DNA of 64,000 bases from an uncultured archaeon (GTDB taxonomy: Archaea; Asgardarchaeota; Lokiarchaeia; Sigyniarchaeales; SOKP01). The stretch's first letter is position 1. Each line of letters starts with the position of its first letter. The position numbers and the translations under genes were made by a program. The notes below the pieces were generated by a model. It did no database searches. It saw only the letters and a list, made by a program, of their open reading frames with translations, and was not told the DNA's origin. The stretch covers positions 128,001-192,000 of the forward strand of contig CAZALK010000004.1 in the NCBI GenBank assembly GCA_964486045.1. The letters run 5' to 3'. Shown piece after piece: positions 53,351-55,971 of the stretch.

Positions 53351-53830
53351 ATGTCTGAAAAAGATTCTACTTGTGAAGATGATACCTGCGAGGTGCTCGA
53401 TTTCTCTAAAATTTTTCAATTAATCAATATTTTAAATAAAAAGTATGATAAGTTGCAACGTAAAATTGTGAAGAATGATAATCTCACCCCACCTCAACAT
53501 TCAATATTAATGCAGTTATGGGATTCTGATGGAAAACGATTTAAAGAATTAGCGTCGGCGTGCTGTTGCTCCCCTTCAACAATAACGGGAATAGTAGATA
53601 CTATGGAAAAACATGATTTAGTTTATAGGAAAAATAATCCAGAAGATAGACGAAGTCTTCTTGTAAACCTTACCGAAAAGGGAAGAGAAATTCAAAAGAA
53701 TACTCAACCAATCAAAATTATTTTAGAGAACTGTTGTGAAGGTTTTTCAGCTGAAGATGTTGATCAACTTACTCATTTATTAAATAAATTGTCTGATTCA
53801 TTTGAAATTAGTGGATTGGATAACTGTTAA
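53351..53830 (+). CDS. Cys-rich MarR-family transcriptional regulator
   Basis: LTPPQ..IL, ELA, STITGIVD.MEK..LV.R..DRRS..V.LTEKG; 8 Cys including CCC in the HTH. Confidence 0.92.
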   Translation: MSEKDSTCEDDTCEVLDFSKIFQLINILNKKYDKLQRKIVKNDNLTPPQHSILMQLWDSDGKRFKELASACCCSPSTITGIVDTMEKHDLVYRKNNPEDRRSLLVNLTEKGREIQKNTQPIKIILENCCEGFSAEDVDQLTHLLNKLSDSFEISGLDNC

Positions 53831-53870: not shown

Positions 53871-53910
53871 ATAAATACTTCGGACCCGAAATATTCGGAA
53901 CTCTTATATA
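53871..53910 (+). promoter_or_regulatory. Putative MarR operator copy 2 plus TATA box of the peptide-methyltransferase-arsM operon
   Basis: ATAcTTCGG-ac-CCGAAaTAT palindrome immediately upstream of TTATATA (53904-53910). Confidence 0.6.
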
Positions 53911-53983
53911 TTAGTATTGATTATTAATAATTAAAATAAATTTTTTCTTAAAACTCAAAAAAATAAATAATCTTGAAAGAAAT

Positions 53984-54127
53984 ATGACAGATCAAAAAAC
54001 AGCAGAATTAATTAAAGTGTACGAGTCGAAAAAAGCGAAGAAAGCACTTTATTCTCAATGTAATACTCACCAATGTTACATTCCTCAGTATAATTTGACT
54101 TATCAAGGATCTTCCTGTCGATGTTAA
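53984..54127 (+). CDS. Unannotated 47-aa Cys-rich peptide
   Basis: MTDQKTAELIKVYESKKAKKALYSQCNTHQCYIPQYNLTYQGSSCRC*; first ORF after the promoter, 30 nt before the methyltransferase. Confidence 0.6.
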   Translation: MTDQKTAELIKVYESKKAKKALYSQCNTHQCYIPQYNLTYQGSSCRC

Positions 54128-54157
54128 GATTGTGGGAAAATAATTAAATAGGATTAA

Positions 54158-54973
54158 ATGATAAGACTTATGAAAAGGCAAGGGATTTATAAACCAACAA
54201 TAGAGGATATTATTGAAATAAGTGGTATTGAGACTCTCCACCCTGGAGGTATGGTTTTAACACTCCGAGCAGCTGAATTTGCTGGATTAAAGCCAGGAAT
54301 GAAGGTTTTGGATGTATCGAGTGGTAGAGGTACTCAATCTATTTTGTATGCTAGAGAATTTGGAGTTCATGTTACTGGTGTTGATATTTCGGAAGATATG
54401 GTTAAATCTGCTACGGAGAATGCAAAAAAGGAACAAATGGATGAATTAACTACTTTCAAAATAGGTGATTCTCAAAAATTACCATTTGAAGATAATTATT
54501 TTGATGTAGTTATTAATGAATGTGCTGTCGGAATTCCAGATGATTCTCAAAAGGTTTTGGATGAGATGGTCCGAGTTGCTAAAAATGGAGCATCAATAGT
54601 GATTCACGAATCGACATGGCGTAAAACTATAACCGAAGAAGAAAAGAATGAGATTTCTGAGAGGTATGGTACTACACCATTAGAATATGATGAGTGGATT
54701 TCTATGTTAGAAAAAGCTGGTGTAAGGGAAATTACTACCGAGTTTGATGAATGGTCAAAACCTGAGATGTTTTGGAAAATTCGACAAGATCGTGATGTGG
54801 AAGATTTTTCGAAAATATACACACGTTCTGAATTATCAACATTAATTGGAAGAGTTTCTCAAAAACACGGACAAGAAGGAGTAATGATAGCACTTGAAAA
54901 TCAGAAAAAATTTACACAAGTAGTCCTTGATGGTAAATTGGGCTATGGTTTATTTAAAGGAATCAAAAAATAA
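54158..54973 (+). CDS. Class I SAM-dependent methyltransferase (type 11, HPGG subgroup)
   Basis: LHPGG..LT, VLDVSSGRG, GVDISEDMV, GDSQKLPFEDNYFD, EMVRVAKNG. Confidence 0.9.
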   Translation: MIRLMKRQGIYKPTIEDIIEISGIETLHPGGMVLTLRAAEFAGLKPGMKVLDVSSGRGTQSILYAREFGVHVTGVDISEDMVKSATENAKKEQMDELTTFKIGDSQKLPFEDNYFDVVINECAVGIPDDSQKVLDEMVRVAKNGASIVIHESTWRKTITEEEKNEISERYGTTPLEYDEWISMLEKAGVREITTEFDEWSKPEMFWKIRQDRDVEDFSKIYTRSELSTLIGRVSQKHGQEGVMIALENQKKFTQVVLDGKLGYGLFKGIKK

Positions 54974-55002: not shown

Positions 55003-55971
55003 ATGGTTGAAGAAAATTCTTTAGAAGATGAGAAAATTAGGCAGATAGTAAGAGAACAATATGGAAGGGTAGCCGAAGGGCGATCAGAGAGTTCAAGTTG
55101 TTGTGGTCCTACTGCAAATACAGAAGTCCCCACTAATAGTTGTTGCGGTCCGGCTGCACCTACTGTGAACTTAGAGTTAAACTCCAGCAGTGAAAATGCC
55201 AGCAGTCCTATAAAGATCCCAGCTGATAAATTAGGTAAATTCATGAAAAGTTATAGTTCTCAATTAGGGTACACTGAAGAGGATCTTAGAACTATTCCTG
55301 ATGGTGCTAATCTGGGGCTAGGGTGTGGCAATCCAACCGCACACGCATCTATTCAGGAAGGAGAAACAGTTCTGGATCTTGGAGCGGGTGGTGGTTTAGA
55401 TTGTTTCATAGCAGCAGATAAAGTAGGAAAAACAGGGAAAGTTATTGGAGTAGATATGACTCCTCAGATGATTGATCGAGCTCGAAATAATGCAAGAAAG
55501 GGCAATTATGAGAATATTGAATTTCGGCTAGGGGAAATCGAGAACCTCCCTGTTGCTAATGATTCTGTGGATCTAATTATGTCAAATTGTGTTATTAATC
55601 TTTCTCCTAATAAAGATAGGGTATTTAATGAAGCTTTCAGAGTGCTCAAGCCAGGTGGAAGGATGCTGATTTCAGATATTGTTCTACTAAAAGAATTACC
55701 CGATGTCATCAAAGATAACAAAGAAGCATATTGTGGGTGCATATCAGGAGCAATCTTGAAAAAGCGGTATATAGAATTAATAGAAGAAGCGGGATTTCAA
55801 GATGTTGAAATTATGGAAGAGAGCGATTACTCTACAGTTGATTTTTTACTTGATGATCCAATCGCTGGAGCAGCTTTAAAAGAACAAGGAAGAGATCTTG
55901 AGGAATTGAAAAATCTAGAAGAATACATCACAAATTCAAGTATAAAAGTTAAAGCAATAAAACCAAATTAA
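55003..55971 (+). CDS. arsM: Arsenite S-adenosylmethionine methyltransferase
   Basis: VREQYG, SCCG (twice), [47 protein letters not shown]. Confidence 0.93.
55096..55158 (+). repeat. Internal 21-nt duplication encoding two SCCGP motifs in ArsM
   Basis: agttgttgtggtcctactgca (55096) vs agttgttgcggtccggctgca (55138). Confidence 0.75.

Follow-up and report, generated by a model that had tools for sequence, protein, structure and literature searches.

Within the 64,000-nt stretch of archaeal DNA analysed here (hereafter the window), a gene for a Cys-rich regulator of the MarR family is followed, after a spacer of 327 nt, by genes for a class-I methyltransferase (MT1) and an arsenite methyltransferase (ArsM). 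The spacer, with a G+C content of 26%, carries a palindrome, a TATA-box-like element and then a small ATG-to-TAA frame of 47 codons, giving the gene order MarR, small ORF, MT1, ArsM (Table 1). The question raised by this locus is whether so short a frame is a gene and, if so, what its product would do at the head of an operon ending in ArsM. The preliminary description of this DNA had reported a 47-aa ORF with a Lys-rich N-terminal half and a Cys-rich tail, lying first after an operator-like site and a TATA box; translation of the plus strand confirmed the composition, and the coordinates confirmed that it is the first ATG frame after these two elements. The N-terminal half of the product is rich in Lys and Glu, and its four Cys residues (Cys26, Cys31, Cys45 and Cys47) form a C-x4-C pair followed by C-R-C directly before the stop codon.

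Table 1. Features of the arsM operon and its control region, in positions of the window.
Feature	Position	Strand	Evidence
Cys-rich MarR-family regulator, 159 aa, 8 Cys	53351..53830	+	Pfam MarR PF01047, E 1e-18
Operator-like palindrome, TTCGG-N2-CCGAA plus a third half-site, abutting the TATA box	53879..53901		Near-invariant in a five-locus DNA alignment
Archaeal TATA-box-like element	53904..53911	+	Conserved TTTATATA block; start of the small ORF ~73 nt downstream; transcription start putative
Gene for the 47-aa small protein, stop included	53984..54127	+	22 homologues; dN/dS 0.15-0.34; sole frame open throughout the copies; AlphaFold2 helix 2-24
MT1, class-I SAM methyltransferase, second cistron	54158..54973	+	Pfam Methyltransf_31, E 3e-23
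ArsM, arsenite S-adenosylmethionine methyltransferase, last cistron	55003..55971	+	NCBIfam NF008823, 336.5 bits (cut-off 263)

The ArsM encoded here is the sole match to an arsenite methyltransferase above cut-off in this genome. MT1 stays under the NCBIfam cut-offs, its best-scoring models being those of DVU_1556-type methyltransferases (102.7 of 155 bits) and of ArsM (91.6 of 263 bits); it has a single Cys and, within the genus, occurs only beside ArsM. The palindrome and TATA block are near-invariant in five related loci (the window, L010, L011, L012 and L023), which is not so for the flanking spacer, and MarR presumably occupies the palindrome. The block is kept in MarR-ArsM loci with and without the small ORF, and in genome G002 this promoter stands directly ahead of MT1. 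No terminator-like site was found between the small ORF and MT1, and the operon, consisting of MarR, the small ORF, MT1 and ArsM, contains no protease, cyclase or exporter gene. ArsD was not found in this genome; an ACR3-like arsenite efflux gene (G000:C25:37229-38185; 279.3 bits against a cut-off of 282.8) lies on a contig other than that of the arsM operon. In these Asgard archaea the metalloid sensor is likely a Cys-rich MarR and not an ArsR. In the literature searched, neither a peptide of this type nor an archaeal arsM under MarR control was described.

Length by itself is weak evidence for a gene at this position, being only marginally above chance: in simulated spacers (Markov-1), an ATG frame of at least 47 codons arose in 3-4% of cases on the plus strand and in 5-8% on either strand. 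The exact 47-aa sequence was not found in a collection of 15 billion proteins, which fits a gene that has gone uncalled in this genome. Both the length-only p of ~0.03-0.08 and the missing gene call would also suit a chance open frame in an AT-rich spacer, a reading that is refuted by comparison with relatives and to which we give next to no credence: there are 22 homologues with a conserved frame, dN/dS is well under 1, and the difference in length is an in-frame block of three residues.

Homologues were first recovered by anchoring on the neighbouring genes and then by profile searches. The latter yielded 6 clusters when run on 1.84 billion representative proteins and 20 (at 90% identity) when run on 5.8 billion proteins, together with a fourth genomic copy (G059) and four metagenome loci (L066-L069). 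In total, 22 distinct homologous sequences of 47-54 aa were obtained, several of which carry the annotation 'hypothetical protein' in Asgard MAGs whose NCBI names are Promethearchaeota or 'Thorarchaeota'. The small ORFs of G062 and G052 lie in the same place and have the same C-x4-C ... C-R-C-stop arrangement, but at 28-38% identity. A whole-genome regex scan found no paralogue of the peptide in this genome. Two sets of candidates were discarded: a search of 40 relatives with the single peptide sequence gave only matches of E 0.014-0.8 in unrelated contexts (L002, beside a subtilase-like gene, and L003), which were rejected as chance, and phylum-wide profile matches with E of 8e-4 or worse, mostly containing stops or sitting in long unrelated ORFs, were rejected as well.

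Six DNA copies were compared, and the frame of the small ORF (+0) is stop-free in all of them, each other frame holding at least one stop per copy. Copies differ in length by the three-residue block, and their nucleotide differences fall mostly at third codon positions. Pairs that could be aligned gave Nei-Gojobori dN/dS values of 0.15-0.34, and Fisher tests comparing synonymous with non-synonymous differences gave p = 3e-5 to 5e-3. The small-ORF region had no match in Rfam, and its predicted RNA fold was no better than that of shuffled sequences (z-score -0.74). Given the conserved open frame, the in-frame length differences, the synonymous excess, the lack of an Rfam match and the unremarkable RNA fold, we conclude from these sequence comparisons that the 47-codon frame is a conserved protein-coding gene under purifying selection, with every appearance of being translated. 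Two checks proposed in the preliminary description, dN/dS and conservation of the ORF and its Cys upstream of orthologous methyltransferases, thus came out in favour of a gene, both ORF and Cys being conserved in a subset of the orthologous loci. An antisense ORF of 77 aa (54008..54241, minus strand) was also considered and is not conserved. The copy in G059 (L023:1483-1647) has a TTG start, a stop three codons upstream and no ATG available, and it ends in N-C-C and not in C-R-C; two database relatives of the same subtype (P0008 and P0019) have an ATG start. In G059, TTG may serve as the start codon, or the start may have been damaged.

The same data bear on the reading that the small ORF is a regulatory upstream ORF or leader peptide, in which the act of translation and not the product controls the downstream methyltransferase genes. 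Its position would suit this, since the transcript has no earlier short ORF and the next start follows 24-61 nt later, and a clean deletion leaves an operon that looks functional. However, purifying selection acts on the peptide sequence, over its whole length; no stand-out alternative RNA structure and no terminator after the ORF was seen, and the ORF does not overlap the start of the next cistron. We regard a leader peptide as quite improbable.

AlphaFold2 models built from 12 and from 22 sequences gave a confident basic helix at residues 2-24 (block pLDDT 79-86), in keeping with the helical N-terminal half supposed in the preliminary description, a short helical turn between C26 and C31, and, at residues 32-47, a tail that is unstructured and modelled with low confidence; the Cys-bearing tail is predicted to be flexible (pLDDT 52-67). 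Columns conserved in at least 90% of members are K8, Y23, S24, C26, P34 and C47, with L9, K4, C31 and R46 next. Among the 22 members, C26 is kept in 91%, C31 in 82%, C45 in 73% and C47 in 95%: thirteen members have all four Cys, eight have three and one has two, so that at least three are present in 21 of 22. None of the four is invariant; where a Cys is lost, Tyr or Phe mostly takes its place, either of which requires only one base to change. Longer or fused forms of the peptide were searched for and none was found, and Pfam, NCBIfam, PDB sequence profiles and the ESM Atlas yielded no relative. The sole Pfam model with any signal was SR1P (PF13790), a 39-aa Cys-rich Bacillus peptide; it matched 4 of 12 members (best E 0.0028), and the peptide of the window scored 16.8 bits (E 0.008). 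Membership was rejected, as 16.8 bits compares with a gathering threshold of 26 and the match spans 25 residues and involves unrelated organisms and contexts, and the signal was taken as compositional. By these searches the family is new and restricted to a few Asgard archaea, although accessory proteins that are small and bear Cys are familiar from metal(loid) operons.

A structural zinc-binding micro-protein (a mini zinc finger), housekeeping or regulatory and merely resident in the operon, is suggested by four Cys in two pairs on ~50 aa, the usual look of archaeal zinc-finger micro-proteins, and by the 13 of 22 members that keep all four. The archaeal CPxCG micro-proteins in particular resemble the peptide in size (~50-60 aa), in their four paired Cys, in being lineage-restricted and in often going unannotated. 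The peptide differs in motif spacing, its C-x4-C and C-x-C being neither CPxCG nor CxxC knuckles, and its Cys are not invariant: nine of the 22 members lack one or two of them, mostly with Tyr or Phe in place, which a Zn(Cys)4 fold rarely tolerates. Four invariant Cys in two knuckles were thus not found, AlphaFold2 builds no knuckle, and the position in the operon is fixed in all contexts seen. A zinc finger is, on balance, improbable.

Convincing matches to the peptide were found in 4 of 400 Asgard genomes, all of one genus. Its surroundings were readable in eight contexts (G000, the genome of the window, with G062, G052, G059, L066, L067, L068 and L069); those of database-only members were covered where they coincide with G062, G052 or L066-L069. 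In 8 of 8 contexts an orthologous Cys-rich MarR (68-80% identity) and the operator/TATA block lie immediately upstream, and ArsM lies downstream wherever the contig extends far enough, L066-L068 ending before it. The peptide accompanies four of the ten nearest MarR orthologues (68-100% identity) and is missing beside the other six. The gene is therefore accessory, six of ten close MarR-ArsM loci (G203, G202, G063, G004, G065 and G002) doing without it.

Several related loci show traces or variants of the arrangement. G002 has MarR, MT1 and ArsM with a short spacer and no small ORF, and in G063 a long spacer follows MarR, which may hold a decayed remnant of the small ORF. Small ORFs in G056 and G257 have a helix-only likeness to the family (19.8 and 14.1 bits) and two Cys each, and are possible distant or decaying relatives. 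G041 (L046) and G257 (L055) have an identical leader up to the ATG; in G257 a 40-aa small ORF and then ArsM follow, and in G041 the small ORF is cleanly absent, its start context being fused to the ArsM start. In G265 (L052, oriented 2124-2273), the only ORF downstream of the MarR orthologue is one of 49 aa that corresponds to the Cys-rich N-terminal segment of ArsM with two CC pairs. The 1.5-kb flank showed no methyltransferase domain, and the ORF is a decayed arsM or else a CC...CC peptide in its own right. Taken together, the loci compared indicate that the small-protein family is narrow, accessory and repeatedly lost.

MT1 and the peptide occur independently of each other. MT1 directly follows the peptide in G000, G062, G052 and L066, and in G059 and L069 ArsM directly follows it, with no MT1. 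Nine MT1 orthologues (71-81% identity) were found in the same GTDB genus; three of these also have MarR upstream, two of the three (G062 and G052) with the small ORF. MT1 without the peptide occurs in 7 of the 10 genomes of the genus, namely G002 and six genomes in which MT1 and ArsM follow a Cys-rich AbrB/SpoVT-like protein of ~102 aa, with neither MarR nor peptide. This ~102-aa protein (L013-L018, oriented ~1190-1498) carries the motifs CACGP, QCC and PCC, and its stop abuts the MT1 start; its family was assigned by eye, and it is likely an alternative thiol-based regulator.

The preliminary description had suggested that the peptide might be a RiPP-like substrate of the methyltransferase encoded from 54158, that is a precursor with a leader helix and a Cys core modified by MT1. 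The bipartite look of the peptide and the methyltransferase gene directly after it in four loci would be in line with this. Nevertheless, the peptide occurs without MT1 and MT1 without the peptide in the genomes just listed, and the reading is thereby left unsupported. Neither obligate co-occurrence nor a conserved leader with a variable core and accompanying protease or export genes was found: both halves are conserved and under purifying selection, with no hypervariable core, the operon is without processing or export genes, and the families nearest to MT1 are ArsM-like small-molecule methyltransferases. A RiPP precursor is scarcely credible.

The reading that we consider best, with a probability of about 0.4, is that the peptide is an inducible As(III)-thiolate-binding micro-protein acting as a carrier or buffer for ArsM. 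It is favoured because of the fixed place of the gene in a MarR-headed ArsM operon and because 21 of 22 members have at least three Cys, as many as an As(III)-S3 site requires. Redundancy among Cys is tolerated by a three-coordinate As(III) site but usually not by structural Zn(Cys)4; the three-of-four redundancy of the family fits a trigonal As(III)-S3 site and fits structural Zn(Cys)4 poorly. The predicted flexibility of the tail has its parallel in the loops with which ArsR and ArsD bind As(III). In the mechanism proposed, the Cys-rich MarR would sit on the palindrome overlapping the TATA/BRE region and repress until a thiol-reactive metalloid releases it. Arsenite would thereby induce the operon, and the small protein, MT1 and ArsM would be made together from the TATA box. 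The tail of the peptide would wrap As(III) with three of its four thiolates, and the peptide would then buffer the metalloid or present a thiol-bound substrate to ArsM, a role that As(GS)3 or ArsD-type chaperones have in organisms possessing glutathione or ArsD. The preliminary description had likewise proposed an As(III) chaperone or sink feeding ArsM. Of this proposal the place in an ArsM operon and the Cys complement were borne out, and binding and hand-over have the probability just given, as judged from sequence. As a bulk sink the peptide is a poor prospect, with one As site per 47 residues.

Some observations run counter to As(III) binding. The non-Cys residues K8, Y23, S24 and P34 are conserved as strongly as the Cys, which points to a specific fold or partner and not merely to a thiol cluster. 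One member has two Cys, as do the possible distant relatives in G056 and G257, and the gene is dispensable at six of the ten closest MarR-ArsM loci. As the peptide is missing from the AbrB-type ArsM loci, its link could be to MarR and not to ArsM.

The main rival to an As(III) carrier takes up this last point. In it, the peptide would be a partner or modulator of MarR, a co-sensor or anti-repressor whose helix docks on MarR and whose tail shares or competes for the metalloid with the Cys clusters of MarR, so that induction is tuned by a feedback loop whose gene is the first cistron to be induced. The peptide is found only beside this MarR (8 of 8 contexts) and in none of the six MT1-ArsM loci with the AbrB-like gene, conservation is strong in the helix and at non-Cys positions, and in at least 10 genomes another very small Cys-rich ORF follows a Cys-rich MarR paralogue, which suggests a recurring pairing. 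Yet 4 of 10 against 0 of 6 is statistically indistinguishable from chance, with kin that are non-independent, and most MarR orthologues work without the peptide. A modulator of MarR is unlikely, in our estimate.

The paralogous MarR, ~50% identical to that of the window, was observed in at least 10 related genomes (L056-L065), followed by a conserved acidic ORF of 27-29 aa with the pattern M-x-DK-[DE]-x2-CC-[ST]-E ... CC, the second CC being near the C-terminus (for example L060, ~140 nt past the MarR paralogue, oriented ~2098-2184). The genes downstream of this ORF vary and include a 189-aa ORF, methyltransferase-like genes and a 289-aa ORF. A whole-genome regex scan of G000 found no copy of the acidic CC...CC peptide.

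The As(III)-carrier reading can be extended to a broader proposal, which we put forward as somewhat doubtful. In Asgard archaea lacking glutathione, ArsM might under physiological conditions receive As(III) or MAs(III) from this dedicated 47-aa thiol micro-protein, which would take the place of As(GS)3. The micro-protein would then be a second invention of an arsenic metallochaperone, unrelated to ArsD, and part of a lineage habit of pairing Cys-rich MarR sensors with tiny Cys-rich peptides encoded by the first cistron. Studies of ArsM enzymology have used glutathione or thioredoxin as the thiol partner. A small, synthesisable peptide heading an ArsM operon under a thiol-rich sensor makes the feeding of ArsM in glutathione-free archaea directly testable. 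The peptide also adds a member verified by comparative evidence to the poorly charted archaeal micro-proteins that annotation misses; were it merely a dispensable, lineage-specific accessory, it would still be a clean case of a real gene of fewer than 50 aa recovered by comparison.

Three known systems invite comparison. Metallothioneins (SmtA/BmtA, MymT) are, like the peptide, small, Cys-bearing, metal-inducible and encoded beside a metal-sensing repressor. They have many more Cys, forming multi-metal clusters, whereas the peptide has four in 47 residues (8.5%), enough for one site; no metallothionein family was among its Pfam or NCBIfam matches, and neither Cys density nor profile places it with them. 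The Cys triads by which ArsR/SmtB repressors sense As(III) are exemplified by C-x-C-x2-C in R773 ArsR and by the C-terminal CC-x5-C of A. ferrooxidans ArsR, and the loss of one Cys is tolerated there. The peptide shares with these the closely spaced Cys on flexible segments, the C-x-C motif and a site at the extreme C-terminus. In contrast, the triads lie within DNA-binding proteins, and the peptide is free-standing and without an HTH, the regulator at its locus being a MarR.

ArsD is regarded as a carrier that accepts As(III) with three thiolates and delivers it to the main enzyme of the operon. ArsD proteins have ~120 aa and a thioredoxin-like fold and serve the ArsA ATPase and not ArsM, whereas the peptide has 47 aa and consists of one helix and a tail. 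With E values up to 1 allowed, the ArsD profile (PF06953) matched neither the peptide nor 12 members of its family; in sequence, size and fold the peptide is not an ArsD. The likeness is one of setting and spacing: both are small accessory proteins of arsenic-resistance operons, both are patchy among operons, and the C-x4-C of the peptide matches the Cys13-x4-Cys18 spacing of the site in R773 ArsD. By this analogy, ArsD would be the nearest functional counterpart of the peptide.
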